Source: an uncultured Armatimonadetes bacterium
GTDB lineage: Bacteria > Armatimonadota > Hebobacteria > Hebobacterales > Hebobacteraceae
DNA length: 64,000 nt
Direction of reading: 5' to 3'
NCBI GenBank assembly: GCA_963716175.1
Contig: OY970296.1
Span: 1,856,001-1,920,000, forward strand
A program made the translations under genes and the position numbers. This document shows positions 22,717 through 64,000 of the stretch, one piece after another (within the stretch, counting starts at the first letter, position 1; every line of letters starts with the position of its first letter). The notes beneath the pieces are model-generated. The model had not been told where the DNA came from and searched no databases. It saw only the letters and a program-made list of their open reading frames with translations.

Positions 22717-23064
22717 GGGGGCGAAAGGGCTCGACGGTGGACTGGGAGCTGCAGGACGCGAGCCGAGTTGCGTGAGCTCGATAAAACGCGCACCTCAATA
22801 ACTGCCAACCAACCATTGGCACTCGCCGCCTAAGGGCGGTGGCGTCCTCCCGACCGGGCTAGCACGGTCGGCTTGGGCGTAAACACTCGCTAGCTTTCCC
22901 GGAACCCTGAGGTTCGTAGGGGTGAGGGAAGAACGCAAACGAACTAGCTTGGCGGAAAGCCTGCCTGTGGGCGTCCGCCCGGCGAAGCCAAAACGCAGGC
23001 TACGCTCGTAGCGGTCTGCAGGGACTGTCCATCGGACGTGGGTTCAATTCCCACCGCCTCCACC
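22717..23064 (+). ncRNA. ssrA: tmRNA; tag reading frame ANQPLALAA* at 22804-22833
   Basis: 5' GGGGGCGAAAGGGCTCGAC; acceptor stem GGGGGCG/CGCCTCC with G3:U; T-arm GTGGGTTCAATTCCCAC; resume context AATAACTGCC; tag ends in LAA. The 3' end reads ACCT, so the terminal A of CCA is not encoded. Confidence 0.97.
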
Positions 23065-23111
23065 TCTTGGGAATTGAACCCCGGTCTGGCGACCCATCGT
23101 TCCCAGGTCAG
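23040..23111 (+). repeat. Junction J0: tmRNA-end att site (core CCTCCACC 23057-23064) with perfect 14-bp inverted arms
   Basis: GGGTTCAATTCCCA (23040-53) / TGGGAATTGAACCC (23068-81). A downstream CCCAGGTCAG motif is shared with other junctions. Confidence 0.85.
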
Positions 23112-23297
23112 CTCCTCGATGGCCATGAGCCGTGTTGTCGGCCCAGCGACAGAACTGGTGTTACGCGACTAGGGACAGAACCAGGGTCATGTGCCAGGCA
23201 TGCTTCGTCGCGGCAAAAGGGCGTCAGGAGAGGAGAGCACCTTCGGAGAGACGAAGGAGCTGCCTCCTAGACCAGCTACCTCGGAAGAGCAACTCCG

Positions 23298-23783
23298 ATG
23301 AACCTGAAGCCCATCTTGGGGCTGATCATCTGGATCGCGGTATCGTTCTGTGCCGGGCTGATAGGGTCCCGGTTCACCGGCCCCGCGGTGGCCAGCTGGT
23401 ACGCCGATACCAACAAGCCTGCCTGGACCCCTCCCGCTGTTGTGTTCGGCCCGGTCTGGTCGGCGCTCTACCTGATGATGGGCGTGGCTGCCTGGTTGGT
23501 CTGGCGGAAGGCCGGGTTCTCCGGGGCGCCCGGCGCCATCGTGCTCTTCGGGCTTCAGCTCATCGCCAACGCGGCCTGGTCCTGGATCTTCTTCGGGCTT
23601 CATCGCTTCGATCTCGCCTTCTTCGAGATCGTTATCCTCTGGGTGCTGATCCTGGCGACACTGATCGCCTTCTGGCGGCATGACACCACGGCCGGCTTGC
23701 TCATGCTCCCCTACCTTGTCTGGGTGAGCTATGCCAGCGCTCTGAACCTTGCGATCTGGCGTCTGAATCCGCCTGGGCCTTGA
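23298..23783 (+). CDS. tspO: TspO/MBR tryptophan-rich sensory protein
   Basis: 'WY...KPAWTPP...FGPVWSALYLMMG', 'NAAWSWIFFG' and 'PYLVWVSYASALN'. Confidence 0.92.
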   Translation: MNLKPILGLIIWIAVSFCAGLIGSRFTGPAVASWYADTNKPAWTPPAVVFGPVWSALYLMMGVAAWLVWRKAGFSGAPGAIVLFGLQLIANAAWSWIFFGLHRFDLAFFEIVILWVLILATLIAFWRHDTTAGLLMLPYLVWVSYASALNLAIWRLNPPGP

Positions 23784-23893
23784 GGCACGACACGCGTGGT
23801 CGGCTCGGAACCGCGCCGGCTTTGATGCCTCTGTTGCACGGTCCGCGACCTCGCGGTGCGCTGGGACGCCTGACGCAGCGGGCCGTATGAGCA

Positions 23894-26315
23894 CTAGTGT
23901 GAAGCATCCCTAACAAGCAGGATCCCGTCCATCGGCGCCAGCGTGACCTCCGTTGCTGGGCTCCCATCATTGTAGCGGCTGGCCGAGGAGATGTGGAGCG
24001 CGTCCGCCACGCACGGCCGCCCATCTTCCGTCCGGACCCGTACCCGCGGATGGTCCGCTGGCTGCAGGGCGAGCTTGTCCGCGATGGTGTGCCATTCATC
24101 CCCGCCAGTGGTTTGGTCAAGGCATGTGCGGTGTAGCACCTTGCCGCCCGCCACGACCTCGAATACCACGCGGTGGCTCCAGTCGCCCGCGCTTGGAGCA
24201 GCAGGCCACCAGGCCTGAATCGTGTAGCGATCGCGGGCCGGCAGGCGCAGGTCCCAGCTCGCCTCTGCGCCGCGCGCCAGCAGTCTGCAGTCCTTTCCCC
24301 AGTTGTGGTAGTACGGCCCAGCGGCCTTCCACATCCCTGAGTCAAGTGTCACGACCTGGCTCTCGCTGCTGGCTGTGAACCCGGCATCGGTGTTATCGAC
24401 GATGTACTGGTAGCGCGGTGCCTGCGCCCCCTGTAGCCGCCGATACCCCGGGCCCAGTCTGACGGTCTGTGGCTCACGGCTGCCGTTGAGGAGCACCGTG
24501 CCATGGCTGAAGTCGCGGCGGTAGACCGGCGGCGGGGCCTCCGTCAGGCTCACGTCGTCCAGCCAGACGCGGCCGGCAGTCGCCCCGATCAGGAACTGGA
24601 TGCGCGCATCGCGGGCGGCGACGGGGGCCTCAAATGTGACGCGGTACTGCTGCCAGTCGGCCGTGATCTGGATGGTGCGGCCGAGGCCGTAGCTGTCCCA
24701 AGGCGGCGCGCCCTTGCTCGCACTCAGCGTGATCAGGCGCGGCGCATCTGCCTTCGCCCAGAAGGTCAGGGCGTAGCTAGTGTGCGCCCTCAGCGCGCGG
24801 TTGGCCTGGCAGAAGTCGATCTGCCAGTCTGCATGTCTCCCCGCATCCGCGATCGTGATCCTGGCTGAGGCGCCGCCGTTGTGCGCCTGCGCCGGGTCTC
24901 GCTGCACGGTGGCCACACAGCCGGCGCTTGCGTCCGCCCAGAGCGACCAGTCCCCGCCCAGAGGCTGCTCGAAGCCGCCGTTGGTGATCAGGTCGTGCGA
25001 TTGACCCCGTAGCTCGCCAACACAACGCGCTTCGCCCAGTGGCTCGCCCAGGTCACAGTCAAGCTCGTCGTACCACCACGTATTGCCGTGCCCCGTGTCG
25101 CCGGCCTCGTGCGCAAAGTAGCCGTCGCCCATCAGTGTGAAGGCCAGGCCAAAGCGCATGTACGGGTAGTAGGTGCGACCGAATTCGAGCGTGGATGCCG
25201 GAATCGTCTCGTAGGCGTCAAAGCCGTACCCGTAGCCGATCTGCCCCGGAATCGCGGACTCCACCGACGTGATCGTCGGCTGCAGGCTTTGCTCGCACCA
25301 GTCATGGTATTGGCTCCAGAAGTCGCTGAAGCTCATGCGCCCCTCGATCACGTCCACCGGGGAAAAGCCGATGCTCAGGCCATGGAACAGTCCCGCCACC
25401 CCGGGCTCGTCCGGCGATCCGAGCGAATGGGCCGAGGTGAAGGCATACGGCATCAGCTCGTGCCAGGTACGCATCTCCAGCAGCACCCCGGCCCGCCAGG
25501 CGGCGTCGAGCTTCGCCGGGTCATCAGCCTTGCCATCGCCGTCAGCGTCAATCTCCACCGGGTTGCCATAGATGTCCGTGCGCTGCCAGGATTGCGACAG
25601 CATCACATTGTCGAAGAAGCAGCCATCGAACATGAGATCGCTCTCGAGCATGGCCTTGCGCGCGTACTCCGCCTGATAGCGCGCCACCTCCGGCCGAGTG
25701 AGGTTCAGCCGGTAGGACCCAGGCCAGACCTCGATCTTCTTCCCGTTGACATCGCGCAGGAAGAAGTCGTCCGGCACGTCGTTGTTCTCCACCGCGTTGA
25801 TGCTGCACAGTATCAGGATGCCGGGATTCAGCCGACGCAAGGTGGCTATCTGCTTGGCGTCAAACGATGCCCCCAGCCACACATCGACCTTCGCGGCCTC
25901 CTCCAGCATGTGGCTCCCTTCGAGCCACGACCAACTCCCCCACAGGTTGAAGACCCGGGGGAAGTGGCGGCGGAGCGAGGGCACGCAACGGTAGATCAGG
26001 TGCTTGGGCTCCAGACTGCTACCGCTCGTGCTCAGATAGATATGGTTGAGCGTCGCGGGGTCGGGGTTGATGGGGATCTCCAGCCTATGCGCCGGGCCAC
26101 CACCAGGTGGCAGCGGCATCATCCGCGCATAAGGGAGTTGCTCGCCGATCGAGTATCGGCAGTCGGCTCCGCTCGACGGCGTCACGGTCAGGGAGCGCGC
26201 GCGTCCCCGCGGGCAGCAGCATGCTCTCTGGCGTCACTGTCATCGCTGGCGGCGCGCCGGCCGCCGCGGTGGCGAGCACCAGGAGCAGAAGACAGATGGC
26301 TACCGCAGTATGCAT
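23894..26315 (-). CDS. Secreted putative glycoside hydrolase with CBM4/9-like and C-terminal beta-sandwich domains (frameshift near 26190-26208)
   Basis: A signal-peptide ORF starting at ATG 26315 (GGAGG upstream) shifts into the 763-aa frame. Motifs 'FDGCFFDNV', 'LITNGGFE...YALTFWAKA' and 'YTIQAWWPA'. Confidence 0.6.
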
Positions 26316-26365
26316 CTCGATCGCCTCCAGGCCGTCCGGCTTCGCGTGCCGCTCCGTATGCTCCC

Positions 26366-28000
26366 CTACTTCGCGGGCACGAGTACCGGGTTGCCCAGGT
26401 AGAGGGTGATGTCCTCCGTCGGCGCGTTGAACCACAGCCGCCAGTGGCGGACCTGGCCCACGTTGGTGACGATGCTCGCTTCGTCGAGGGGAAGGCGCAG
26501 GAGGACCGGCGTACCCGGCGGCACCGGAATGTAGAGTCGCTCCCACGCGTAGCCGTCCTCGCCAGCCAGATCGGCCGCCAGGGGCACCGTATGGTCCATC
26601 GGGTTATAGAGCGGCTGCTCCAGGTAGCGGTACTTCGACCAGTCTGTGGTCGCCAGCAGCTTGCCATCGATCATCACCCACGGCCACTCATCGCTGTTCT
26701 TGTCGGCCCGATCGAACCGGGAGACGTGCATCTCGATCGCATAGCGCTGTCCATCGATCTCGTGCGGTTGCCGCACGATGCGACCGGCGGGATGTTCCTT
26801 GCTCAGCGCCTCTAGGAGTGCCGCGTTCGCGTAATCGAACACTACCAGGCCCCGGGAGGGCCTTGCCTTGGCCCCCAGGAGGACGCGGTTCCACTCGGTC
26901 CTCCGGAAGGTGGGCCGACCGGGTTTGAGGGCGCCCTCGCGCATCTTCCGGTAGACCTCGCCCAGTGCCGCGCACGCCGCGGGAGAAGCGTCGAAGCCTT
27001 GGGGCACTCCGCTCTCGCCCTCCCAGTGGTAGATGAAGGGCATCAAGCCGGCCGCCCCCTGCTCCAGGTAAGCAAGGCACTCCTCCCGCACCTGCTCGGG
27101 CGTGGTCATGACATCCCACGTGCCCGTCTGCTCCCGGAACATCTGCGGCATGCCGATCAACCCAATGCCGGGCTGCTGCGCGTTCGCCAGCTGCATGATG
27201 TAGGTCAACTGCCGGCGGGTGTTCTGATCCAGCGTCCCGTGATGGTAGGGGTAGAGATACACGCCCAGGGCGTCGCAGATGCCGGGCGAGAAGTTCTCCA
27301 TGGCCGATGCTCCCCCGACGCCCATCACGATCACGTGGTGGTACGGGCTGCCGTCTGCCTTCCGGTCATTGGCCCGGATCACACGCGCCATCTCCTTCAG
27401 AGAGTCGCCCTCGAACGGACGGGCGTCGTCTACGAGCCAGAAGCCCCACAGGTTCGGCGAGTCCTTCACGGCCAGAATGTCCTGCTTCAGGCCTTCGGAG
27501 TTGCACAGGAGCAACCCCGCGCTATGCGGCGCCGGCTTGGTGCCGTCCGCACCCCGCGTGCATCCGGTGAAGGCGTCGGCGGTCCGACCCGTGTAGGTGA
27601 TATGCTCCCCCTCGATCACCAGCGTGCCGGAGGGCGGGAACGACGCCCCCTCTCCCCTGGTGTCGGCGGCCACCGCGATCGTGTTTTCCTGCGGCGCGAG
27701 CTCCTTGGCCAGGCGCAAGCCCACAAAGCGGCTGGAGAGATTGTACATCACCTTCATCTGGTGGTCCGCGATCGCCTTGCCCATAGGGCTGGCCGGATCC
27801 AGCTGTTGCCGGCCGCGATCAGCGCTGTAAGTGTAGATGAGCGTCGCCCCGAGCTTGGCGAGCTCCGTGATTTGCTCGGGCGTCTCAACCCCGAAGGCCC
27901 CCAGCGGCGGACGCCCGTACACGCTCAGGTCCACGGCCCTGGCCTGTGCTCCGTATCCACAGAGCCACACAAGGCTCAAGCAGACGATGGCTTTCGGCAT
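26366..28000 (-). CDS. Secreted hypothetical protein, possible TIM-barrel glycosidase-like
   Basis: Signal peptide from ATG 28000; 'NLWGFWLVDD' and 'VYLYPY' resemble GH-A-like proteins. Confidence 0.55.
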   Translation of the reverse strand: MPKAIVCLSLVWLCGYGAQARAVDLSVYGRPPLGAFGVETPEQITELAKLGATLIYTYSADRGRQQLDPASPMGKAIADHQMKVMYNLSSRFVGLRLAKELAPQENTIAVAADTRGEGASFPPSGTLVIEGEHITYTGRTADAFTGCTRGADGTKPAPHSAGLLLCNSEGLKQDILAVKDSPNLWGFWLVDDARPFEGDSLKEMARVIRANDRKADGSPYHHVIVMGVGGASAMENFSPGICDALGVYLYPYHHGTLDQNTRRQLTYIMQLANAQQPGIGLIGMPQMFREQTGTWDVMTTPEQVREECLAYLEQGAAGLMPFIYHWEGESGVPQGFDASPAACAALGEVYRKMREGALKPGRPTFRRTEWNRVLLGAKARPSRGLVVFDYANAALLEALSKEHPAGRIVRQPHEIDGQRYAIEMHVSRFDRADKNSDEWPWVMIDGKLLATTDWSKYRYLEQPLYNPMDHTVPLAADLAGEDGYAWERLYIPVPPGTPVLLRLPLDEASIVTNVGQVRHWRLWFNAPTEDITLYLGNPVLVPAK

Positions 28001-28169
28001 GGTTCCGGCCTTCCTTGGCTCGCGGCCGCGGGCCTTCCAGTGCCAAGCAGCACTGGAGGTTCCCGTCCCGCGCCCGATATCCCTCTGCGCCCGCGGTCGC
28101 TCGGCAGCTTCCTCCTGCGGCGAGCCGAAAGCGCTCGCCACGAGCATCGCGGCCTAGTCTGTTAGTCGG

Positions 28170-28378
28170 CGCTATAGAAGCGGCGTCAAGTCCTCGTCAG
28201 TGGCCTTCCTTCCTCACGTCACAGGCGTTCTCCGCGAGCCACAAGGGCGGAGTGCCCCTTTGCGTGACGGAGCCCGCCGTGGCTCGCCCAGGATTTGTGC
28301 GCGGCTGGTTTCTCGCGAGTTCGCTATCGGCGCTCTAGGGCGCACACTGTCGTCGCGGATGGGGAGCCTCCCAGTTCG
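28170..28378 (-). repeat. Diverged tandem copy of the IS110/IS1111 right-end non-coding region (207-bp unit)
   Basis: 28172-28376 closely resembles 28379-28580, including the sub-terminal IR and TTGACG, with scattered substitutions and indels. Confidence 0.9.
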
Positions 28379-29780
28379 CTATAGAAGCGGCGTCAAGTCC
28401 TCATCAGTGCCTTCTTTCCTCACGTCACATGCGTTCTCCGCGAGCCGCAAGGGCGGAACCCCCGCTGTGGTGGAGCCCGCCGTGGCTCGCCCAGGATCTG
28501 TGCGCGGCTGGTTTCTCGCGAGTTCGCTATCGGCGCTCCGGGGCGCATGCTATCGTCGCGGATGGGGAGCCTCCCAGTTCATCGAGAGCCGTCTGCGCGG
28601 CTAGCCGATTGAGGGGGAGTGCTCCCGCCAAGGGTGCGAGCTCCAGCCGCTCGCGATCAAACCGTGACCTGCACGTGCTCCTCCGGTGCCAGTTCCCGCC
28701 ACGGCTGCCCGGTGCGCAAGAGATGGTAGATCAGATGCGTGGCCTTTCGCGCCACGGCCATCTTGGCGCCATTGCGATGCCCCCGCAGCTGGATCCGCCA
28801 GTAGCGCTGATGCAGGCGACTGCCCTTGCCCTGGCAGGCCATCCGGTTCGCCAGCAGGCCCAGTGCGTACCGCAGCCAGGGATTGCCCCGGTGTCCCAAG
28901 GGCCCATAGCGGCAGTGCTCTCCGCTCTGGAAGACGCGTGGTGCCAGGCCGGCATAGGAGATCAATGCCGCCGAACTGGGGAAGCGTCGAATGTCGCCGA
29001 TCTCGGCTCGCACCGCCAACGCGGTGAAGGGCCCTACCGAGGGCATCGTGCGCAACTGCGCGCAAACCGCGTCACGCTCGGCCTCTTCCTTGATCGCCAC
29101 CTCCAGCTCCGCCTCGATCTCCTGCGCCTTCTCCAGCATCTCTCGCCACAGCTCCAGCACCCGCGCCGAATGTCCCGGCAACTGCGCGGCGTCCAAGTGG
29201 TCCTTCCCCCGCTTCGAGAGCAGGCTCTTGGACTCGACCTCCCCCCAGCACCGCAACAACGATCCGATCTCGTTCACCAGCTTCGTCACCCACCGGGTCG
29301 CTCGCACCTTGCCCCGCACCAATACCCGCAGATCCTGGGTATGCTCGTCCGGTACATAGATCCCCTTGATCTCTTCCCGATACAGCTTCTGCGCCATGCG
29401 CAGGGCATCTCATCTCGCCGATCCGTCTTCGCACTACGATCCCGCTTGCGATCCCACAACTGCGCCGGGTCCGCGATCACCAGGCGGGCGAAGTAGGGCT
29501 TCAGCACGCGATACATGGACCAGGCATTGGTTCCCGTCTCCATCACCCCGTGCAAAGGGCCGGGCAGCTCCCCGAGCACGACGGCCATCACCTCCGGCTC
29601 ATTGCTGATGCGCGCACGCTCCACGATCTCGCCGGTCTCGGGATCGAAGCCCCGGAGCGTGGTCCACTGGCTGTGCACATCCAATCCCACATAGAGCATC
29701 TCTGGCTTGTCCTCCTCTGAGGCTATCGGTCAGGCCTCTGATTCGGCACCGCGAGGGCAAGCCGCTTCTATGATAGTTCG
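28377..29780 (-). mobile_element. IS110-family (IS1111-type) element
   Basis: Sub-terminal IRs ATAGAAGCGGC/GCCGCTTCTAT, CG core at both ends, and a long 3' non-coding region. Joining the ends creates TTGACG-17 nt-TATCAT. Confidence 0.9.
28657..29699 (-). pseudogene. IS110 transposase, frameshifted by a 5-bp duplication
   Basis: DEDD motifs 'GLDVH', 'METG' and 'KTDRRD', plus 'YAGLAPRVFQSG'. CATCT is duplicated at 29406-29415 and breaks 'KTDRRDALRMA'. Confidence 0.9.
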
Positions 29781-29930
29781 TGCAATGATGACCCGCTTAG
29801 GGAGGTGATCGCCGTCGACCACTGACCCACCCTCGAACAGTCGAAACCTGGTCTCCTGGTCGTGCAGGGACACCATCCTAGCGTTCTGACCATTGCTCGG
29901 GGTGGGTCAACCCACGGCGCCGATGGCAGG

Positions 29931-31586
29931 TCAGTTCGCGGTGCCGGCCCACAAAACTGTTCCCTCACGTATCGGCAGCAGGACGTGGGAGGCGTGGGCC
30001 GGGTCCATGTAGATGGTATTGTGGGCGACCCGGGGCGAGACGAAGCGGGGGTAGCCTATCCCGGAGTTCGCGTTGGCGGCATAGCCGGGGTAGCTGCTCG
30101 AGGTCACGTGAAGCCGTATCCGATGCCCGGTGTTGAAGACGATACTGGTTGACCAGAGGTCAAGGTCCAGGAGGTAAGGGCGGCCCGGCTCTACTGACGC
30201 CTCCTTCGACAGCGACTCACGCAACCGGAGCCTGGTGCCTCCCTCACAGATGTTGATGGAGCGTCCGTCCGGGTAGACATCGCACAGCCTGGCGATGAAG
30301 TCGGTGTCCGGCGCGTCGGTGGAGGCCCAGAGTTTCACTCGCACCCGTCCTGTCACCTCCACAGGGCGGTCCAGGGGGTCAGTGGTGAACACGAGCACAT
30401 CCGCGCGAGATTCGATGGGACGCTGGTCCCGCGGTCCGGCCGGCAGGTCATACTGGTAGCCACCAGTAGTCGGCACGGGACGGTGCGGGTCGTACGGGTA
30501 GGCGAGGGCTGTACCTTTCCTATCGCGTTTGGGTTCCAGCGTTCGATCACAATGCAGGTAGAGCCGAGTGGCCGACCTCGGGAAGGGAGGCCAGCTCTCT
30601 GCAGTGCGCCAGCGATTGCCGGGGGCTTTCGGGTCGGTCGCGTCACCCATGACATAGTAGTTCACAGGCGCAAGATCGGCGTCGGAGGTCAAGCCCTTCA
30701 GGCGGGCGCCGAACCAGGCCCAAGCATCCGCGGCACTGGCGGGTGGCTCGTCGGCGTGCGGGAAGGGCCACTTGCTAGCGAAGTCGGGGTATGACACATG
30801 GTCAGTCCCAGGCCCCATCACCAACCTCTGGGCTCGGCGTGCATGCGGCCCCCCATGTTCCTGCATGCCTAAGAAGCCATCAATCGTGCCCTGGGAGAAG
30901 ACATCATACCACCCTCCTGAGTGCAGCGCTGGCACATCCATTTGGCCATAGCGCAGCGCGGCACTGCGTTGCTGCCAGTAACTGTCGTACGTGGGATGGG
31001 ACATCCAGATCTCCAGCGCGCCCGGGTCGAAGATTTCCTCCTGCAGCCATCCCTCGACAAGCGCCTTGCGAAACAGACCGTTCGTGTAGGCGAATGTGTA
31101 GAGGTCGGGGGTCGCGACACCGATGTTTAGCGCGGCCAACCTCCGGGTTCCGGTCCCTGCTGCGAGGAACTGAGCGATCCCCATGGCGGAACCAGCATGC
31201 ATGCCGATCTTGCCATTGCACCAGGGCTGCGCAGCTATCCACTCGAGCGTGTCGTAGCCGTCCTGGTGGCCCCACCAGCCGTCACCTTCGAAGGGGAGGT
31301 TCTCTCCTTCTGAGGCGAAGCGGCCGCGGGTATTCTGGACGACAAACGCATAAACGTCGGCCGCGCGGTGGCGGGCCAAGTTGCTGTAGATGTCTTTGTC
31401 GTAAGGAGTGCGCATGAGGATCACCGGAGCTGGATTGCCTTCAGCAGGCAGGTAGACGTCAGTGGCGAGCCGCACCCCGTCGCGCATGGGCACCAGGAAG
31501 GTCTGCTTGCTCTGCTCCGTGGCAACCGAGCCTAACGCCGGGGTCAGCAGGAGCACCACTATTGCGCAGGTGAGTCTGACTCTCAC
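29931..31586 (-). CDS. CocE/NonD family hydrolase, secreted
   Basis: 'VPMRDGVRLATDVYLP', 'RTPYDK', 'RGRFASEG', nucleophile 'GSAMG' and C-terminal 'GHRIRLHVTSSSYP'. Confidence 0.9.
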   Translation of the reverse strand: MRVRLTCAIVVLLLTPALGSVATEQSKQTFLVPMRDGVRLATDVYLPAEGNPAPVILMRTPYDKDIYSNLARHRAADVYAFVVQNTRGRFASEGENLPFEGDGWWGHQDGYDTLEWIAAQPWCNGKIGMHAGSAMGIAQFLAAGTGTRRLAALNIGVATPDLYTFAYTNGLFRKALVEGWLQEEIFDPGALEIWMSHPTYDSYWQQRSAALRYGQMDVPALHSGGWYDVFSQGTIDGFLGMQEHGGPHARRAQRLVMGPGTDHVSYPDFASKWPFPHADEPPASAADAWAWFGARLKGLTSDADLAPVNYYVMGDATDPKAPGNRWRTAESWPPFPRSATRLYLHCDRTLEPKRDRKGTALAYPYDPHRPVPTTGGYQYDLPAGPRDQRPIESRADVLVFTTDPLDRPVEVTGRVRVKLWASTDAPDTDFIARLCDVYPDGRSINICEGGTRLRLRESLSKEASVEPGRPYLLDLDLWSTSIVFNTGHRIRLHVTSSSYPGYAANANSGIGYPRFVSPRVAHNTIYMDPAHASHVLLPIREGTVLWAGTAN

Positions 31587-49995: not shown

Positions 49996-50021
49996 CCCAC
50001 GTGTCGGCCCAGGGGAATACC

Positions 50022-55041: not shown

Positions 55042-56034
55042 ATGCGGAGGACAATGCTGTGTGCTATGCTGGTAGTTGTCGCGGCCGTCGGGATTGCCGC
55101 AGGTGGCGCGCCCGGCGTCCGATTGGGTGCCGCCGTGAAGAGGAGGAATGGCGCTCTGGTGTTGCCCTTGGAGCGGCTCGCGCCCGGCCTTGGGCTGAAG
55201 GTCTCCTACGACTCGAAGAGCCAGACGATCAGTGTCAGCAAGGGCGCTTGGAGCGCCATCGCCAGAGCGAACACTAAGAAGGCCCAAGCAGCGGGGAAGG
55301 CAGTCGAACTGCCTACGGCTCCGTGGGTCGAATTCCGGAGGAGGTCGCGGGTTACCATGGTTCCCGTGGCCCTGATAGCAACGGAGATGCTCTGGCAGGG
55401 CGGAGTTCTGCCGGACAGTATCTCCGTGAAGTCGGGACGACCCTCAGCGCCTTTTGCCGCATTTGTGCCGTTGTTCGATGAGGGGCGGGAAGCTACGATC
55501 GTGTTCTACTCCTTGGCAAGCGGCAAGCCCGTTCTCTCAGCACGTTACATCGTTCCCGGCCCGGAATCCGCGACGGAGCAACAGCCAATGGGCAAGCTCG
55601 CCATCAATACGTCGGGCCTCAGTGAGAGGGAGGAGAAGTACAGGAGCATACGTGGCGGCTTCGGTGGCAACACTGGTGTCACCGCCCTCGGTGAGTATCT
55701 GCGCAGGGAAGGGTCAGGGGCAGTCGACCTGGGAACGGACCTTGTTTCCAGCTACAGCCAGTGGGAATCCGGGATGAAGCTGGTGAAACGAGGAAAGGAT
55801 CAGGTCCTGGCCATCCAACTGTCAGTGCTGGTCGGGATCGCAGAGAGACGGGGGCAGAAGCTGAGTGTATCGGGCCTTGCTGGCGACGTGGGCAAGCGCC
55901 CCGATGCTATGTACACGGCGCGATTCGAGGGCAATACCATAAAGGTGTCGAGCGCTACAGCGGGTGTTACGTTCAGGTTGGGCAAAGAGGGCGGAGAGCT
56001 CAGCCCCAAGATTCTCTCGGTCTGGGTACTGTAG
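55042..56034 (+). CDS. Secreted protein with a copper amine oxidase N-terminal (stalk)-like domain
   Basis: Signal peptide; 'LVLPLERLAPGLGLKVSYD' and 'VELPTAP...TMVPV'. Confidence 0.6.
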   Translation: MRRTMLCAMLVVVAAVGIAAGGAPGVRLGAAVKRRNGALVLPLERLAPGLGLKVSYDSKSQTISVSKGAWSAIARANTKKAQAAGKAVELPTAPWVEFRRRSRVTMVPVALIATEMLWQGGVLPDSISVKSGRPSAPFAAFVPLFDEGREATIVFYSLASGKPVLSARYIVPGPESATEQQPMGKLAINTSGLSEREEKYRSIRGGFGGNTGVTALGEYLRREGSGAVDLGTDLVSSYSQWESGMKLVKRGKDQVLAIQLSVLVGIAERRGQKLSVSGLAGDVGKRPDAMYTARFEGNTIKVSSATAGVTFRLGKEGGELSPKILSVWVL

Positions 56035-56215
56035 CCCGTGTGAGGAACCGCCTCTGGCACTCTCCCATTCATGGTTGAACACCAGCAAGGGGCGGCTCTC
56101 CCCAGCTGGGTTCGCGGTGGCCTCGGGCGGTTTGGTGGAACCTGGCACCGCAATCCTGGACGATAGCAGAGAACTGCCGTAAGCGAAGATCACCACATTG
56201 CGGGCCGATAGGATA

Positions 56216-56585
56216 CCCGTGCTATCCAGAAACTCATCGGCGCGGTCCAGATCAGATGGAGGCACCCATTCGGTCGTGGGATAACGGATGATGAGGGGAG
56301 ACCATCTCGCCTCGGAATGGATGACACAGTCGCGACCTGGCACCTCTGACAGCGCGACCGGCCCGCAGACCCGCGAATGCGCCCCGCGCACATCCGCTCT
56401 CCAGGCGCAAGTACTCGTTCTGAAACGTTAGTTCCCGGCACAACAGCCGCGCCACGGTCGCGATCACAGGCATCCCCGCCCATCCTCAGCGCCTCCCAGC
56501 ACAGGGGTGTCAACGAGCGCAGAGAATACCACCCATGGGCTCTGCAGGGGCTCTGAGAGCCAGATAGGTTTTCGGATGGCGCGGG
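56216..56585 (-). mobile_element. 370-bp internally deleted IS (MITE) flanked by TA
   Basis: Imperfect TIRs CCCGTGCTATCCAGAAACTCATC / (rc) CCCGCGCCATCCGAAAACCTATC; TA on both flanks; transposase-like N-terminal remnant 'IATVARLLCRELTFQNEYLRLE'. Confidence 0.7.
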
Positions 56586-56619
56586 TACACGCGGCGCCAC
56601 GAGACGAGAGAGTCGAAGA

Positions 56620-58365
56620 ATGAGAGCGGTTATCTTCCTGAGCTGTGTGGCGGGCCTGGTGGCAATGCCCGCGGGCTGTCCGGCCGCAACGGATGCGGTC
56701 AAGTCAGAGAAGCTGGTGCTGGAGGCGCCGACAGTTCATTGCTTGGGGGTGAGATGGTATGTGGCCGGGGATGAGAACGGGAACGCCTCGGTGCAGGTGA
56801 GCTATCGAGGGAAGGGCGAGAGCAATTGGCATCAGGCGATGGACTTGTTCCGTGTGGGCACCGGGCCGGATTCGCAGGAAGGCGAGAAGCGACTGGAAAG
56901 TGGCGGGCGAGACGAGTGGCCGTTCCCGCTGGGCAACTTCTTCGCCGGAAGCGTGTTCGATCTGAAGCCGGACACGGTGTATGAACTGAGGCTTGCGCTC
57001 TCTGATCCTGACGGCGGGAGGTTCATGGAGGAGGTGCAGGCCCACACGCGCATGATCCCCGTGCCGCCGAAGCCGGAACGCACGCTCCATGTGGTACCCG
57101 GTGCCGGGGGCGGAAGCGGGACACAGGAGGACCCGCTGCGCGGTCTGGAGGCGGCGGATGCGGTGGCCAGGCCGGGCGATCTGTTCCTGGTGCACAAGGG
57201 CGTGTACCAGGGGCCGTGGGAGACCGACAAGAGCGGGAAACCGGGCGCGCCCATCGTATGGCGAGCGGCGGGAGACGGGGAGGCGGTGGTGGACGGCGGC
57301 GGGGCGCACCGGGCGGTGGGGGCAAACCAGACCCATGATCTGTTCTTCGAGGGGCTGGCTTTCCGCAACGCAGACTTCGTCTTCGTCGCGCACGGAGCTT
57401 CCGATCTCTCCGTACAGCGGTGTCACTTCTACCAGTGTGACTACGGCTTCACCGCCCACAACAATGAGCCGCCCATGGGCGGCTTCTACATCGCCGACAA
57501 CCTGTTCGAGGGGCCCTCCACCTGGCCGCGCACGAAGGGGATCGAGGATGCGCGGGCGATTCAGGTGTCCGGTGAGGGGCACGACATCTGCTACAACCGC
57601 ATCCGCGGCTTTGGCGACGGCATTGACATCATGGGCTCCCCTCCCGGCCGCGCCATTGACTTCTACAACAACGAGATCTCCGAATGCACCAATGACGCCA
57701 TCGAGCTGGACTACGGCCAGACCAATGTGCGCGCATTCAGGAACCACATCACCAACTGCTTTGAGGGCATCAGCACCCAGCCGCTCTATGGTGGGCCCGC
57801 CTATATCTTCCGGAACGCTATGTACAACCTGGAGTACACTCCCTTCAAGATGCACAACCGTCCCTCTGGGGTATTGCTCTTCCACAACACGATAGTGAAG
57901 AGCGGCATCCCGTGGCCCCTCTACTCGGGCGCGCCAGTCGGGAAGGCGATGTCCTGCAACAACCTCTTTGTGGGCGGGCCGGCGGACTATGCGATGGAGT
58001 TCAGCCCATTGGTTGAACAGGCTCACTTCGACCACGATGGATTCGCGGGCGGACCTTTCGCCATGTTCGCCAAGTGGCGTGGCGAGCGATATGTCACATT
58101 TGGTCACTTCCGGAGCCAGAGCGGCATCGAACGCCACTCGGTCTGGCTGGGGAACGGATCCCCCTTCGCCTCCGGGGTGAAGGTGCCGGCCGATCTCAGC
58201 GAGCAGTTCCCGATCACCGCCAACGACCTCCGGCTGAAGCCGCAGTCACGGGCTGTTGACGCAGGTCTGGTCCTCCCGAACCTGAATGACGGCTACTCGG
58301 GCAAGGGACCGGACCTGGGGGCGTACGAGCTAGGGCAGGCGCTGCCACACTATGGGCCCCGGTAG
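56620..58365 (+). CDS. Secreted right-handed beta-helix (pectin lyase fold) protein with an Fn3-like N-terminus
   Basis: Signal peptide, 'LKPDTVYE', 'ARPGD..VHKGVY', Asn ladders and 'PDLGAYE'. Confidence 0.75.
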   Translation: MRAVIFLSCVAGLVAMPAGCPAATDAVKSEKLVLEAPTVHCLGVRWYVAGDENGNASVQVSYRGKGESNWHQAMDLFRVGTGPDSQEGEKRLESGGRDEWPFPLGNFFAGSVFDLKPDTVYELRLALSDPDGGRFMEEVQAHTRMIPVPPKPERTLHVVPGAGGGSGTQEDPLRGLEAADAVARPGDLFLVHKGVYQGPWETDKSGKPGAPIVWRAAGDGEAVVDGGGAHRAVGANQTHDLFFEGLAFRNADFVFVAHGASDLSVQRCHFYQCDYGFTAHNNEPPMGGFYIADNLFEGPSTWPRTKGIEDARAIQVSGEGHDICYNRIRGFGDGIDIMGSPPGRAIDFYNNEISECTNDAIELDYGQTNVRAFRNHITNCFEGISTQPLYGGPAYIFRNAMYNLEYTPFKMHNRPSGVLLFHNTIVKSGIPWPLYSGAPVGKAMSCNNLFVGGPADYAMEFSPLVEQAHFDHDGFAGGPFAMFAKWRGERYVTFGHFRSQSGIERHSVWLGNGSPFASGVKVPADLSEQFPITANDLRLKPQSRAVDAGLVLPNLNDGYSGKGPDLGAYELGQALPHYGPR

Positions 58366-58534
58366 CCGCCGCCGGGCGCGCCGCCAGCGGGGGCGGAGGG
58401 TGGAGCGTTCATGCCCAAGGGGCAGTCGGCGAGAGTGATCGTAGAGGGAGTCGGCCTGGTCCACCAGGACCGCGGACAGGACCGGCCCCTCGTTCTTATT
58501 CACGGCTCTGGATGTCCACCGCTCGTGAAGCCGG

Positions 58535-58600
58535 CCTCAGGGCACCTCTCGACTCCGGCTGCCCCCTCGGCTGGGAGTCAGGTCTGGGGTTCCGTTGCGT
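58535..58600. repeat. Hairpin repeat copy
   Basis: GGCACCTCTCGACTCCGGCTGCCCCCTCGGCTGGGAGTCA..GGGG. Confidence 0.8.
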
Positions 58601-58706
58601 ATGCGGCTGATCCGAGCCCGCACGCAGGCTGATGAGCTGTCGGAGATCCGCGGTCCCATGAGCCTATGACAAGGGGCGCATACTCTACAGGGGTGGCCGC
58701 GCAGGA

Positions 58707-61022
58707 TCATTGCGCCCCCGTTCCCGGGAGCGACTGGAAGCCGGGGAGCGAGAAGTAGCCCTGGGATTCGGCGCAGACGCCCATCCGGTAGATCGGGTCG
58801 CACATCAGGCAGACACGGCGGTCGGCGGCGCGGATGGTGGTGGCGTAGATGCGCACCTCGCCATCGAGGGCAGTGATGATCTCCTCCCGCCAGTCGCCGA
58901 AGACGTCAGCTATCGCGATCAGTCTTCCTTCGATCGCGGGCGGGCGATCCTGCTGCGCGCAGAGGTTGTGGAGCCGACCGTCGAGCCAGAGTTCCCGGAG
59001 CAGGTCTTCGTCCCAATAGGCGGCGTAGCGCCACTGCTCTTCGGAAGGGCCGCTTGAGATCAGGTCGCCCTGTGCGCTGTAGAACCACTGATTGCGCAGT
59101 TGTATGCTCCAGCCGCGGGTCTGCACCCCGGGGTACTCGGCAAGCAGCTTCGCGGTGATCCCAGCACGGATCTCAAAGGTCTGCTTGTCGATGCCCCACA
59201 GGATCTCGCCTGTTCTCGCGTCGACCTGGCAGATGCCGTTCTTCTCAATGCCCCATTCGTGACCGTACTGGATCTCCAGCCCGGGGTGGGTGGGATCGAG
59301 GTCGCCAACGGCGCAGTGGTTGGAGTGATGGAGGCCGGTGGACCAGAGGCCGACCCCATTGTCATCGATCACCGCGTCCCCGATGACCACTTCGTCTCGA
59401 CCGTCCGCGTCGACATCGGCCGATAGGAGCGTGTGCGAGCCCTGGCCGCTGAAACGCGGGCCGTCCTCGCGGTCGATCCAGCGCCACAGCTCGCGGAGCC
59501 GCCTGCCGTCGAACTCCATCGCCACGATCTCGATGGTGTAGTAGGTGCCGCGCTGGACGATGATGCATGGGGTCTTGCCATCGAGATAGGCGACGTTGAG
59601 GAGGTTTCGGTTGAGGGAGTCGTTCTCGGCGTAGCCTTCCCGCGCAGGCCATGGTGCGCGGGCGCGCTCGCGACCGGTCTTGCCGTCCAGTATAAGCAAC
59701 CACTCCGGGCCCGAGGTGACGTGTCCGTCGGGGTCGCGCGGATCGCCCTCCCCTGCTTTCACCGCGACCTCGGCGCAGCCGTCGCCGTCGAAGTCGTAGA
59801 CGATGTAGGGGGAGAACCAGACGCCCGTCTCGATGGACCAGCCCATATCGTGCCGCCACATGAGCTTGCCATCCAAGGTGTAGGCCTCGAGCTTGTAGGT
59901 ATCCTGGCTTGGTTTCCAGTATTTCGGGCCGCCAGGCGGGCCGATCCACGGGTCATAGCTGTTGTTGGGCTGCTTGATCACGTACTCGTAGCGACCATCG
60001 CCATCCAGATCGCCGATCGCCACCTTGTTCGCCGAGTAGTCGCCCGCGAGCTTGATGGAGACGTAGGGTTGGCCGCTGGGCGACGCGCTGGCGCGGACTC
60101 TCTCACTCTCGGCGCCTTCCGTCAGATCCACCACCGGCCGCAGGTAGTACTGCGATTCGCCAGATGGGGCGTGCTCGTCAAGGAAGTCGGTAGTGCGGCG
60201 GATGGGCTCGGCGTTGAGGCGAACCGTGGGGCCGTGTGGCGAAGTCCGGTAGAGGTTGAAAGCGAGATGCTTCGGATCAGAGTCGAGGAGACGCCAGCCC
60301 AGGTAGACGCGGCCGCCCTCGGCCGGCACGGCGACCAGCCCACGGCCGAGCCGCTCCTGGATACGCTCGCGAGCGAAGCCGTCCACGAGAGGCTTGGCTG
60401 TTCTGGCGCGCTCGCGACATCCCGCGGCGATCTCCAGGTCATCGAGGAACAGGTCGGTGCTGTGTCCGCCGCGGATGCGGGCCTGGATCTCCCGGCAGTC
60501 GTCGGGGATAGTGACGACGACCTCGAATTGCTGCCAGTAGCTCTTCGCGACGAGCATGTCGCTGGCAAGCTGTTGAGGCTGCCGTCCTTCGGCTAGACCC
60601 GACACCTCCAGGAATGCTTGCCCGCACATGAAGCCGCTCCGGCCTTTCATCCAGGCGGTGATCGTGAACAGCTGGCCCGGCCTAACCGGGAGGCGGGCCG
60701 AGTTGGTGAGCGTCCATTGGCTGTAGCCCCAGTCGCCCTCTTGCATGGGCCACAGGATGTGGGCCGCGCGGGTGCCGGAATGGGCCTGGTCCGAGATGCC
60801 TGCGGTGGGTTCGCCGGAGGCGACGCGCTCCGGCGGCATCCGTTCGCCGATCTCCGGGTGTTTGGAGGTGAGAGTCCAGCCGATGAGGTCCGAAGCGCTC
60901 GCTTCGAAGCCCGGGTTGGCGAAGACCGCGCCGTCGCCGCCGGCTCTCATACCGGCGGCAAGGAGAGCGATCACCGTCAGCGAGATAACGAGAACGGCGG
61001 GACAATCCACCGCGCCTAACAT
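58707..61022 (-). CDS. Rhamnogalacturonan lyase family 11-like protein with an N-terminal CBM-like domain
   Basis: 'ERLGRGLVAV..YLGWRLL', 'GDLDGDGRYE', 'YDFDGDG.AEV', 'AYLDGKTP', 'QGSH..ADVDADGRDE' and 'ADVFGDWREE'. Confidence 0.85.
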   Translation of the reverse strand: MLGAVDCPAVLVISLTVIALLAAGMRAGGDGAVFANPGFEASASDLIGWTLTSKHPEIGERMPPERVASGEPTAGISDQAHSGTRAAHILWPMQEGDWGYSQWTLTNSARLPVRPGQLFTITAWMKGRSGFMCGQAFLEVSGLAEGRQPQQLASDMLVAKSYWQQFEVVVTIPDDCREIQARIRGGHSTDLFLDDLEIAAGCRERARTAKPLVDGFARERIQERLGRGLVAVPAEGGRVYLGWRLLDSDPKHLAFNLYRTSPHGPTVRLNAEPIRRTTDFLDEHAPSGESQYYLRPVVDLTEGAESERVRASASPSGQPYVSIKLAGDYSANKVAIGDLDGDGRYEYVIKQPNNSYDPWIGPPGGPKYWKPSQDTYKLEAYTLDGKLMWRHDMGWSIETGVWFSPYIVYDFDGDGCAEVAVKAGEGDPRDPDGHVTSGPEWLLILDGKTGRERARAPWPAREGYAENDSLNRNLLNVAYLDGKTPCIIVQRGTYYTIEIVAMEFDGRRLRELWRWIDREDGPRFSGQGSHTLLSADVDADGRDEVVIGDAVIDDNGVGLWSTGLHHSNHCAVGDLDPTHPGLEIQYGHEWGIEKNGICQVDARTGEILWGIDKQTFEIRAGITAKLLAEYPGVQTRGWSIQLRNQWFYSAQGDLISSGPSEEQWRYAAYWDEDLLRELWLDGRLHNLCAQQDRPPAIEGRLIAIADVFGDWREEIITALDGEVRIYATTIRAADRRVCLMCDPIYRMGVCAESQGYFSLPGFQSLPGTGAQ

Positions 61023-61094
61023 GTAGACCTCCAATCGCTCACGAACGATCACGCGTGGGCGCCGATCCGACGTGGGGCTTCCGCAGGTGATCGC

Positions 61095-61398
61095 GGCAGA
61101 CGTTCCCAGCATCGAACTCCCAGACCTCGCCCGTTGGTGGAGAGTTTCTGTGTCTAGGCCTGTTTCCCCCACCATTCGCGAGTAGAACCCTCGTCTGAAG
61201 GCGGGGAATGCTCCGATCACCTTGGGACTACAGCGCGGTTTCAATTCTCACTGCCTCACCCAAACGCGCCCCTCATTGAAACGGGGAATCCGTCCACAGC
61301 CGGAGAGAGTTTCGTTCTCAGGAACGTTTCCTCCACCTCCTGTAAACCAGAAGCCAAGTCTCGTCTACAGCTGCAGAGAGTGTCTGATCCCAGGTCAG
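61095..61398 (+). repeat. Tandem junctions J4a (core 61166-61173) and J4b (core 61330-61337)
   Basis: 61170-61333 is homologous to 38637-38799; 61326-61493 appears identical to 48311-48478. Confidence 0.9.
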
Positions 61399-61444
61399 TC
61401 TCCCCCCGCCATGGTCCCGTTCCGGCAGGACCGCCGCCCACCCC

Positions 61445-61530
61445 GCCGAAGCATCCCGTGTGGTCGCCCCAGGCACCCCCGACTCCGGCTACCCCCTCGG
61501 CTGGGAGTCATTGCCCGGGGTCTCGTCGCG
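61445..61530. repeat. Intact hairpin repeat (empty IS481 site); a truncated copy lies at about 61877-61950
   Basis: CCCCAGGCA..GACTCC..GGAGTC..TGCCCGGGG imperfect palindrome. Confidence 0.8.
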
Positions 61531-61721
61531 TGTGGCGGACGCGGTTGGCAGGATGCTCGTACCCTCGACCATCACTCCATGTGCCGCGACGATCCCCCAT
61601 GGCTGCCAGCGTGTGCTCGCCACCTCGGACAAGGCTGTGCGGGCCAGTGCTCTCGATGTGGTATGCCTGCTACGAGCAGAGTGCCACGCCACACTCGAAG
61701 GCACAGCAAGGAGGCCGTGGG

Positions 61722-61781
61722 ATGGCAGGCTGCAAGACCAAGAAGACCTGCGGGACGAAGAAGAAGGCTGCGAAGAAGTAG
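61722..61781 (+). CDS. Candidate 19-aa Lys/Cys-rich microprotein MAGCKTKKTCGTKKKAAKK
   Basis: AAGGAGG SD 7 nt upstream; all Lys codons are AAG; hairpins follow at about 61791-61808 and 61816-61845. Confidence 0.55.
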   Translation: MAGCKTKKTCGTKKKAAKK

Positions 61782-62311
61782 CAGCCGCACACTGAGCTTC
61801 AACTCAGTTGGGGAAAGGCCCGGGTCAGATTCGTGGCCCGGGCTTGGCCATTGTGTGCCCGCGCTGTCACCTTCTCCGCCGAAGCATCCCGTGTGGTCGC
61901 CCCGGCCACCCCCTCGACTTGGAGTCAGCGGCCGGAGCTCCGTCGCATATGCGCTAAGCGTACTTCCCAGGAGAGAACGGCTTCCGCAGGCGCCGCCCAG
62001 GTTCTCATATGGTAGAGTGTCTGGGAGTCACCGGCAGGCCAGCAGGGCTGTCACCGATGTGCCATCGCCACTGAACATGAACACTCTAACCGCCTCGCTT
62101 CCGCTCCAGACGCGCGAGTGCGCTGACGTGTGAGCGGGGTATAGCGCGGATGCGGCGCGCTACGGCAATCCTCCGACGAATGTTTCCACCCGCACCATAG
62201 TCTTCCCCTGCTCGCGAGGAACGCCCGGACAGAGCTTCTCGGGAGCACACCGACAGGCTTCCGAACCCAATAGCAGAACTCATCTGTGTGATCTCCCGGA
62301 AAGGTATCTCT

Positions 62312-64000
62312 ATGAAGCATCTGGCCTGGGTTATCTGCGCTCTGACATGCCTCTGTGCGCTGACCGCTCCTGGCGCCCACGCCGCGACGTCCGCCGCCCC
62401 CCTGCGAGCGAAGGCCAGCAGGAGCTTCTACATGGGCGAGGCGCAGGCCGAGTTGATCCTGCTTGGCGACGAGAGCCTGACCGCCAAGCGCGAGCTGCGG
62501 GCCGACGTCTTCGCCGGTGAGAGGCAGCTGGCGCAGGGCGTCCGGCCAGTCGTGGGCCGGCGCGTCATCGTACCTTTCGATCTGACCGCGCTGCCCATGG
62601 GCGAGACCGAGGTGACGTGTGTGCTGAAGGGGACCGGGGAGGAGCGGCGCGTCAGCGCGCTTGTCACCAAGCTCGAGCCCAAAGCCGGTGCGGTGCAGAT
62701 CGACTACGTGGGCGGGGGACTGATCGTAGATGGGCTCCCCTTCTTCCCGTTCGGGTTCTACTGCGAGCCGCCGGCCCAACTGAATCAGCTGGAGGAGGAG
62801 GTGGTGAGGGGATTCAACGCGGTGTCGCCGCCCCTGCCCAACGGTCCTGCCGGCGTGGCGGAGCGCCTCAGGTACCTCAATCGCGCCGCTCAGCTGGGGA
62901 TGAGGGTCAACTACCCGCTGGGCAGCATCTCCGTTCTGGGCTCTGGGCCCGATGCCGTTGCGCGGGAGCAGGCCCTGCGCCAAGAGGTGGAGGGAGTTCG
63001 CGACCACCCCGGCCTGCTCGGGTGGTACCTGTGCGACGAACCGGATGGGAACAAGATAGCGCCGGAGGAGTTGGCGCGCAGCTACCGCATCGTGCGCGAA
63101 CTCGACCCCTATCACCCCATCACCATGGTCTTCATGGCCCCGGAGCCCGCGAAGCAGTTCGCCGCGGCCACCGATGTCGTGATGACCGATCCTTATCCTA
63201 TCCCCGATGACCCGGTTACCGACGTACACAGGGCCATTGCCCTACTCGTGTCAGAGTTCGGCGGAGAGAAGCCCGTCTGGCTGGTTCCGCAGGCCTTCGG
63301 TGGCAATGAGTGGTGGGAGCGAGAGCCCACCGCGGCCGAGGAGCGGGTGATGACCTACCTGGGTCTGATCGACGGGGCCACGGGAGTGGTGTACTACGTG
63401 CGTCATGGGCTCAACGGGTTCCCGAAGTCAACCATCACCTGGGGCGAGTGTAGCCGGCTCGCGCTGGAGGGGGCCGAGCTGTCCCCGGCGCTGCTCTCTC
63501 ATGAAGCACGACCGCGGGCGAAGAGTTCAGCCGACTCCATTCACGTCGGCGCCTGGCGGGACCGCGGCATGATCTACGTGCTCGCGGCCAACACCGAGAA
63601 CCGTCCACAGATGATGCGCCTGGAGGTGGAGGGGGTCACGGGGAGGGGCGAGGCGAAGGTGATCTTCGAGAATCGCACCGTGTCTTTCGCCCGGGGCGTG
63701 GTCAGGGACATGATCGACGCCTACGGGACGCGGGCCTACCGGATCCCGATTGGCCCCATGCCCGCGGAGGATCTCACCGTCGATCCGCGGAACCTGATCG
63801 TGAACCCCAGCTTCGAGGAAAACCCGAACACAGGTGCGCCGGAGGGATGCTACGCGAACATAGGCGCCGCGCGGGGAGTCACCTACTTCACCGACTCTCG
63901 CGTCGCGCGCCACGGCGGGCACTCCGTCCGGCTGGCGGTGCCCGAGGAAGGACAGCGCGTCTGCCTCGACCTCTACCCGGCCCCGGTCACCCAGGGGAAG
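62312..64000 (+). CDS. Secreted GH-A-like TIM-barrel protein with a CBM-like domain, 3'-truncated by window
   Basis: Not in the ORF track (no stop in window). Signal peptide MKHLAWVICALTCLCALTAPGAHA; 'VDGLPFFPFGFY', 'HPGLLGWYLCDEP', 'TDPYP' and 'NLIVNPSFEE'. Confidence 0.8.
   Translation, partial: MKHLAWVICALTCLCALTAPGAHAATSAAPLRAKASRSFYMGEAQAELILLGDESLTAKRELRADVFAGERQLAQGVRPVVGRRVIVPFDLTALPMGETEVTCVLKGTGEERRVSALVTKLEPKAGAVQIDYVGGGLIVDGLPFFPFGFYCEPPAQLNQLEEEVVRGFNAVSPPLPNGPAGVAERLRYLNRAAQLGMRVNYPLGSISVLGSGPDAVAREQALRQEVEGVRDHPGLLGWYLCDEPDGNKIAPEELARSYRIVRELDPYHPITMVFMAPEPAKQFAAATDVVMTDPYPIPDDPVTDVHRAIALLVSEFGGEKPVWLVPQAFGGNEWWEREPTAAEERVMTYLGLIDGATGVVYYVRHGLNGFPKSTITWGECSRLALEGAELSPALLSHEARPRAKSSADSIHVGAWRDRGMIYVLAANTENRPQMMRLEVEGVTGRGEAKVIFENRTVSFARGVVRDMIDAYGTRAYRIPIGPMPAEDLTVDPRNLIVNPSFEENPNTGAPEGCYANIGAARGVTYFTDSRVARHGGHSVRLAVPEEGQRVCLDLYPAPVTQGK

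Follow-up and report, generated by a model that had tools for sequence, protein, structure and literature searches.

The window analysed here, a 64,000-nt stretch of contig OY970296.1 (positions 1,856,001–1,920,000; assembly GCA_963716175.1) from an uncultured Armatimonadetes bacterium of the Hebobacteraceae, carries the gene for transfer-messenger RNA (tmRNA, ssrA) at 22717–23064 on the plus strand and, downstream of it, a series of gene-bearing segments separated by repeated junctions that share the tmRNA 3′ end. Low coordinates such as 22717 refer to the window, and seven-digit coordinates to the 4.56-Mb genome. RNAs were sought with ARAGORN and Rfam, both of which recognise the tmRNA gene (RF00023, 170 bits; tag ANQPLALAA), and in the Rfam screen tmRNA alone scored above gathering thresholds. 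The final eight nucleotides of the gene (23057–23064) are the core CCTCCACC. The locus is probably the proximal part of a tandem array, ~220 kb long, of genomic islands that entered site-specifically at the 3′ end of tmRNA, with a large serine recombinase (LSR) resembling XisF and the Ccr enzymes as the most likely agent.

At the end of the tmRNA gene lies J0, a 42-bp attB-like palindrome (23040–23081, plus strand) consisting of GGGTTCAATTCCCA, a 14-nt spacer, and TGGGAATTGAACCC. J0 is composed of the tmRNA end and the first right arm, R1, a short-type half-site found by self-BLAST at 23065–23163 on the plus strand, which recurs at genome positions 1962489, 1969146, and 2087842 with 90%–92% identity. 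The CC centre falls at 23060–23061, within the core, and positions 7–20 from the centre are the same on either side (14 of 14). J0 thus has the form of an LSR attachment site, namely an imperfect inverted repeat of ~40–50 bp with a central non-palindromic dinucleotide (CC), and, judged from motif positions counted by hand, it looks like an LSR attB.

Six junctions follow in the window, each with a core CCYCCACC between arms of ~55–120 nt. A profile built from these sites (35202, 38633, 38796, 48315, 61166, and 61330) and searched with nhmmer against the genome recovers them with E values from 2.5e-24 to 3.6e-26. The bare 8-mer occurs 21 times in the window, against 10.5 expected, and alone is poor evidence. 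J1 (35084–35260; E 2.5e-24) comprises a left arm with a tmRNA-like T-arm motif and a long-type half-site, the core at 35202–35209, and an R1-like right arm. The double junction J2a/J2b (38515–38887) has cores at 38633–38640 and 38796–38803 and ends in a partial third unit at 38834–38887, which is real but weak (E 0.011; pseudo-core TTTCAACACC). J3 and its right arm R2 occupy 48197–48478, with the core at 48315–48322; this R2 and the arm that follows J4b match at 100% identity across 168 nt (self-BLAST). The double junction J4a/J4b, again with right arm R2, lies at 61048–61493 (cores at 61166–61173 and 61330–61337). Successive junctions delimit segments of 12.1 kb, 3.4 kb, 163 bp, 9.5 kb, 12.9 kb, and 164 bp. 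Every junction is on the plus strand and between genes; at 61166 a long open reading frame overlaps the junction solely through an upstream TTG, its likely start lying near 61022 with a signal-peptide-like sequence. A preliminary description, made from the sequence alone, had reported these six repeats with related arms, the partial copy near 38860, the segment sizes, and the uniform orientation and intergenic setting, and all of these observations stand.

The same description held that arm types reassort at the core, and this is borne out both within the genome, where left- and right-arm types combine differently with the core as the switch point, and in contig C124 of a relative (G005), where a J1-type left arm is joined to a J2b-type right arm. 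At genome position 1945593, a right arm begins at a core-like site with unrelated DNA to its left. Comparison with relatives (labelled G005, G010, G011, G018, and G024, of which G011 belongs to another genus and G018 to another family) places the switch at the same point: in 10 of 10 tmRNA genes with a readable flank, from 10 genomes, differing sequence begins immediately past CCACC. Past the tmRNA gene of G011, the opening 88 nt are 85% identical to the right arm of junction 2033129 here, and the next 2.1 kb are 85.5% identical to 2041285–2043416; hence, the DNA that adjoins tmRNA in G011 sits 154 kb further out in the present genome. Differences between strains and relatives, a comparison that the preliminary description had proposed, fall exactly at the core. 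Metagenome data were compared as short contigs, and those of two runs join the tmRNA end (23064) to another arm, with matching sides of only 36–47 nt, which lends weak support.

The half-sites themselves are of two types, as counted by hand from aligned copies. Left arms carry the motif GTTC.AT as in J0, ~6 bp further from the centre: it extends to position 18 in the half-sites of tmRNA and R1, and to position 24 in left arms, and several right arms carry its reverse complement at a similarly long distance. All six window junctions combine a long-type left with a short-type right half, whilst many distal junctions, and also those of G011, are long plus long. In LSR sites, the distance from the centre to the zinc-ribbon-domain motif is shorter by 5 bp in attB than in attP (PMC3783163). 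The offset in the present arms resembles this attP/attB difference, a suggestive analogy. Left arms also possess a tmRNA-like T-arm motif ~110 nt upstream. A consensus RNA or single-stranded DNA fold of the left arm was considered and rejected, with RNAalifold finding 0 pairs over 26 copies and 3–8 weak pairs on sub-alignments. For 10 units folded as single-stranded DNA, z scores ranged from −3.5 to +1.3, two of the 10 at −2.5 or lower and five above −1.4; since no fold was consistent, the idea of a conserved attC-like hairpin was dropped.

The window holds only the proximal fifth of the array, with ~180 kb more beyond it. The profile, together with a second sequence model built from 26 copies, yields 33 junction matches in the genome. 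Of these, 18 fall in the interval from tmRNA (1879064) to a convergent tRNA-Phe gene (2099497–2099572), which equals 4.8% of the genome, and 16 of the 18, between 1879064 and 2099407, are on the plus strand. G011 has seven co-oriented matches and one opposite within the 271 kb downstream of its tmRNA gene. The junction element is confined to a few genera of the family. A pattern scan of a species collection returned 11 stretches, seven of them from two records titled Armatimonadota/Armatimonadetes, and the four from other records may be chance matches.

The distribution bears on a very different reading, which is highly improbable: that the junctions are a dispersed hairpin repeat—akin to a miniature inverted-repeat transposable element (MITE) or repetitive extragenic palindrome (REP), or a small RNA gene—that ends like tmRNA by chance, with the segments being ordinary chromosome. 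A ~75-nt unit does occur in tandem (J2a/J2b, J4a/J4b, and 2099332/2099407), some units fold well single-stranded (z −3.5 and −2.7), and a terminator-like hairpin follows some copies. The 15 matches outside the array, mainly at 714–1082 kb on the minus strand near tRNA-Phe copies of opposite orientation, are all co-oriented with the inferred direction of replication. This second cluster may tentatively be regarded as a mirror image across the GC-skew minimum near 1.14 Mb, the skew being noisy. Reassortment, however, occurs at one fixed point, the very point at which the tmRNA flanks of relatives diverge; LSR genes are linked to junctions; there is no consensus fold, half of the 10 units having z above −1.4; Rfam gives no match; and no target-site duplication is visible in aligned copies. 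A repeat of the MITE or REP kind would be scattered genome-wide in both orientations, with constant ends and target duplications, whereas more than half of the matches here lie in one small part of the genome, their parts reassort, and flanking duplications are absent. As the preliminary description had proposed, the repeats are recombination junctions anchored at the tmRNA 3′ end and not a randomly scattered repeat.

Genes for tRNA-Phe occur at 747667, 789636, and 981231 on the plus strand and at 2099497 and 2285183 on the minus strand, with partial copies near 1028.0, 1072.2, and 2279.7 kb. The flanks of the five genes and the partial copies are 79%–91% identical, and one of the genes, convergently oriented, marks the far end of the tmRNA array. 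A second hot spot of integration is probably provided by tRNA-Phe, and the repeat-rich regions at 0.71–1.08 Mb and 1.88–2.29 Mb look like mirror images.

A recombinase was sought with six-frame genome searches using PF00589 and PF00239, which gave 0 matches within the window; nor did tblastn find remnants there of the LSR or of its neighbouring genes. A hidden recombinase among the seven window proteins with no or a weak Pfam match was also considered and set aside, PHROGs giving one weak match to a structural-protein repeat only. The preliminary description had called the array integrase-less and advised a search further along it. The term holds for the window and fails for the array, in which an LSR gene with one stop codon lies beside a primase-like gene. 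This gene (2041688–2043232; 523 codons), 163 kb downstream of tmRNA, is the one full-length cognate copy in the genome; it is 87% identical to the G011 protein, has a single TGA at codon 325, in the zinc ribbon, and adjoins a gene with DUF3854/DUF927 domains. There is a short LSR fragment at 2074.3 kb, and the five other LSRs in the genome are distant (30% identical or less).

Intact counterparts stand next to tmRNA in relatives. G011 encodes a 524-residue LSR on the reverse strand, 1.8 kb from the tmRNA 3′ end, with the Pfam domains Resolvase, Recombinase, and Zn_ribbon, and homologues adjoin full tmRNA genes in G010 and G024; in all three, the intact gene lies 1–2.5 kb from the tmRNA 3′ end. 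The best NCBIfam matches of the LSR are XisF (1e-50; 173 bits against a cut-off of 375) and CcrB (1e-48; 166 bits against a cut-off of 900), and by these scores, it is a relative of the Ccr family and not a member. Amongst the 19 LSR copies of the clade with examined flanks, eight lie within 3.2 kb of a tmRNA 3′ end (three copies) or a junction (five copies), always on the right-arm side, and one further copy has a weak junction match only. In the present genome, a Mu-type transposase gene (rve and Mu-transpos_C_2 domains; 2033429–2035015) lies between junction 2033129 and the broken LSR gene, thereby widening the junction–LSR distance to 8.6 kb, versus 1.8 kb in G011.

Alternatively, a tyrosine recombinase could have driven the system, with the XerC-like family of ~310–325 residues acting on the core as a dif-like site, as in Xer-exploiting elements; this is quite unlikely. 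The family does have Phage_int_SAM_1 and Phage_integrase domains and scores 1e-68 against XerC, below the cut-off. A broken copy (2102432–2103658) sits just beyond the array end, with 3′ fragments at 1952.9, 2027.2, and 2113.8 kb, and several intact PF00589 matches occur within or close to the G011 array, in open frames of 268–336 residues that are similar in size, their membership of the family being only putative. XerC-like genes, however, never adjoin a junction or tmRNA, the nearest in G011 being 9–18 kb off, and the 42-bp palindrome with motifs 12–18 bp from its centre is wider than a Xer-type core site. Other members of the family in this genome are at 808848–809825 and 2242359–2243840, with further fragments at 2241.5 and 92.4 kb. 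Remnants nearly always consist of the gene 3′ end plus ~50 nt, as would be expected if the attachment site of the element overlapped its own recombinase gene at the 3′ end.

The cargo of the window segments was annotated with Pfam and PHROGs. Segments of 3.4–12.9 kb hold one to seven genes, on both strands. Segment 1 (23164–35083) encodes TspO, a GHL15/CBM glycosidase, a 593-residue unknown protein, an IS110-family element, an S15 peptidase, and two unknown proteins, none of them a recombinase by Pfam or PHROGs. The IS110-family transposase element within it (28377–29779) is 100% identical to 1969318–1970720, which lies ~70 nt past the right arm of junction 1969153. Ahead of it, 208 nt of its own end are duplicated in tandem (28170–28580; 90% identity), and a contig of one metagenome run lacks 28379–28581. 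Segment 2 (35261–38514) has a single GH20 hexosaminidase-like gene (35550–38207; Pfam). Segment 3 (38888–48196) encodes, by Pfam, an RNase II-like protein, a 238-residue unknown protein, a phosphoketolase, an acetate kinase, and a P-type ATPase; the last three form a block that is 86% identical to one in G005, where the context is different.

The R2 flank of J3 is interrupted by an IS481-family insertion sequence (48451–49818, minus strand; Pfam rve/HTH), of which three more copies, ~99% identical, occur elsewhere. Segment 4 (49819–61047) encodes a methyltransferase, a 1126-residue ankyrin-repeat protein, a Cu_amine_oxidN1 protein, a beta-helix protein, and a rhamnogalacturonan lyase (Pfam). 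The beta-helix gene and its flanks (56494–58592) are duplicated further along the array at genome 2004998–2007096, with 97.6% identity. Segment 5 begins at 61494 and continues past the window end at 64000, the next junction-like site being genome 1945593. Conservation of the cassettes as units in relatives was looked for and rejected, with only single genes or the 3-gene block being shared, in other contexts.

Several genes of segment 4 are preceded by a further repeat, here termed family-X. It has window copies at 49772–49998, 51019–51222, 56398–56585, 58513–58630, and 61455–61534; copies are ~80–230 nt long and 70%–90% identical, and nhmmer finds 99 in the genome, 41 of them on the plus strand at 1.9–2.1 Mb. 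Present in most genomes of the family, it sits directly upstream of cargo-gene starts and contains a hairpin, GACTCC-N16-GGGAGTC, and a purine-rich GGGAGAGAA box ahead of the start codon. Family-X may be a common promoter or leader for island genes; searches of family-X and the junctions against Rfam gave chance-level matches only.

How the array arose can be outlined as follows. Junctions would be remnants of attachment sites, with the left half-site derived from the right end of one island and the right half-site from the left end of the next, meeting at a crossover inside CCTCCACC. Such a crossover would mean that each insertion rebuilds the tmRNA 3′ end. The most likely enzyme is an LSR of the XisF/Ccr-like group, encoded by some of the islands close to the end that faces tmRNA; the window islands may have lost it or never had it, and may have moved or accreted using the enzyme of a neighbour. 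We infer that the joints were catalysed by the LSR and that each window island could move as a unit. Mobilisation in trans and growth at the tmRNA-proximal end are plausible and consistent with the G011 comparison. At present, the array is probably frozen, because the sole cognate LSR gene has a premature stop codon.

Several points weigh against this account. Canonical LSRs recombine attP with attB only, and tandem accretion would consequently need a relaxed, Ccr-like enzyme or another route; Ccr enzymes recombine several site pairings. No recombinase remnant was found in any of the window segments, so that loss of the enzyme from them is only an assumption. For 10 of the 19 LSR copies, the available flank lacks a junction, many of these ten being on contigs of 3–8 kb, and 15 of the 33 junction matches fall outside the array. 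The motif offset, by hand count, is ~6 bp and not 5, and the left arms, at ~120 nt and 85%–91% conserved across genera, are far longer than an LSR site needs. There is no clear compositional signal of an island, GC content being 0.60–0.675 in the array and 0.647–0.688 upstream, and the G005 phosphoketolase block has no flanking junctions. Neither an excision circle nor an empty site was seen in the metagenome contigs, which likewise did not contain the expected circle joint (the core end of a junction followed by the right arm of an earlier one). One joint that goes back, from 38803 to 35177, was present in one run with a 33-nt side and is unlike the expected circle joint. Regions that these contigs leave without coverage are given no weight.

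Two further findings concern stray pieces of the site. A 102-nt piece at genome 2476736–2476837 (minus strand; positions 1237–1338 of locus L047) repeats the tmRNA 3′ end with 97% identity and has a mutated core, CCTCGACC. Next to it come a long-type arm and a terminator nearly identical to the 3′ flank of tmRNA in G018. This fragment looks like a displaced or imported attL-like piece, inverted and 600 kb from the tmRNA gene. The possibility that the left arm is a mini-element inserted in sites made of a tmRNA-like sequence plus an arm was unsupported, no empty sites being found besides the real tmRNA and the fragment at 2476759.

The absence of recombinases from the window also suits a live system of integron-like capture, in which recombinase-less cassettes with a composite long-left/short-right site are inserted singly at the tmRNA end by an enzyme supplied in trans. 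The right arm of each cassette would mimic the chromosomal half-site, so that the attB-like palindrome is rebuilt and proximal growth continues. J0 does resemble an unoccupied attB despite the islands downstream, six of the six window junctions are long-left and short-right, and the island that carries the tmRNA-adjacent LSR in G011 is found 154 kb distal here, which fits younger insertions nearer tmRNA. This genome, however, has no intact cognate recombinase, and neither circles nor empty sites are seen in the metagenome contigs. In G005, an island with its own LSR ends in a short-type right arm, and such arms are therefore not special to non-autonomous cassettes; the multi-gene segments, with genes on both strands, do not recur as whole units in relatives; and the long-plus-long distal junctions are not what this model predicts. 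Live capture of this kind is accordingly unlikely. The more general proposal, that the tmRNA end is a self-renewing entry site for LSR gene capture at which recombinase-less cassettes are stacked indefinitely from the proximal end by an enzyme in trans, is similarly doubtful. Were it true, integron-like logic would have arisen from an LSR and an RNA gene, and would account for ~5% of this genome.

Taken as an array of LSR-integrated islands, the locus widens the range of LSR-driven tmRNA island arrays beyond Dehalococcoides, into an uncultured clade with related records titled Armatimonadota; a limited literature search for tmRNA genomic islands in Armatimonadota found no account of such arrays. 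It would also show that such arrays reach ~220 kb, made up mostly of recombinase-less members with carbohydrate-active, transport, and central-metabolism genes. The site set—a palindrome formed by the tmRNA T-arm and its mirror image, with short- and long-type half-sites—offers a natural test of how LSRs discriminate partner sites, as well as of tandem accretion by enzymes thought to be strictly attP-by-attB. The intact LSRs of relatives could serve as new site-specific integrases.

Amongst known systems, integrons share with this locus a fixed chromosomal entry site, co-oriented boundaries of recombinase-less cassettes, and partly palindromic boundary elements. Unlike integrons, it has no IntI-type tyrosine recombinase at or near the entry site (0 PF00589 matches between 1712374 and 1952911), the core CCTCCACC is not the GTTRRRY of attC sites, which are structured single-strand hairpins with R''/R' boxes, and single-strand folding is inconsistent across copies. 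Its cassettes are of 3–13 kb and multi-gene, on both strands, as opposed to the mostly single, promoterless, co-oriented genes of integrons. The likeness to integrons drawn in the preliminary description is accordingly not supported, there being no intI, no attC-type core, and segments with several genes on both strands.

Islander-type islands, which use tyrosine integrases at tRNA and tmRNA genes, are similar in that the target gene is rebuilt by the island (PMC4383910), a displaced fragment is left at the far end, and tmRNA is a frequent target. They differ in the enzyme: no tyrosine integrase adjoins tmRNA or the junctions here, and the site-linked recombinase is a serine enzyme. The staphylococcal cassette chromosome (SCC) shares tandem elements, some of them recombinase-less, and the use of a Ccr-type LSR to enter an essential single-copy gene at its 3′ end. 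One report describes a 3-element composite island that includes a pseudo-SCC (10.1101/336396). The target here is the tmRNA gene and not rlmH, a single LSR gene is seen in place of a ccrA/ccrB pair, and the CcrB score is far below the cut-off.

Among the closest known systems are the ssrA islands of Dehalococcoides, in which, according to McMurdie et al. 2011 (PMC3146451), several islands stand in tandem in the 100 kb downstream of the single ssrA gene, with a 20-bp repeat at their boundaries. In the same text, 16 of these islands carry a CcrB-like serine recombinase (~540 residues) on the reverse strand next to attL, whilst for others, which lack an integration module, mobilisation in cis by accretion is proposed. 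The preliminary description had noted that known tandem islands typically carry their own recombinase modules; these Dehalococcoides examples provide a precedent for members without one. As in Dehalococcoides, co-oriented tandem islands lie directly downstream of the tmRNA gene, here and in G011, and their boundaries repeat the tmRNA 3′ end, by an 8-nt core at the extreme 3′ end in this case versus a 20-bp repeat with crossover in the T-loop. An integration module of the Dehalococcoides type is absent from the five window segments, is a pseudogene in a distal island of this genome, and is present in the tmRNA-adjacent islands of G011, G010, and G024. Compared with Dehalococcoides, the differences are the phylum (Armatimonadota), an array of ~220 kb as against at most 100 kb, and the ~55–120-nt arms. 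The best reading, then, is that the arrangement is of a known kind, represented by the Dehalococcoides ssrA islands and by SCC composite islands, and not an integron.

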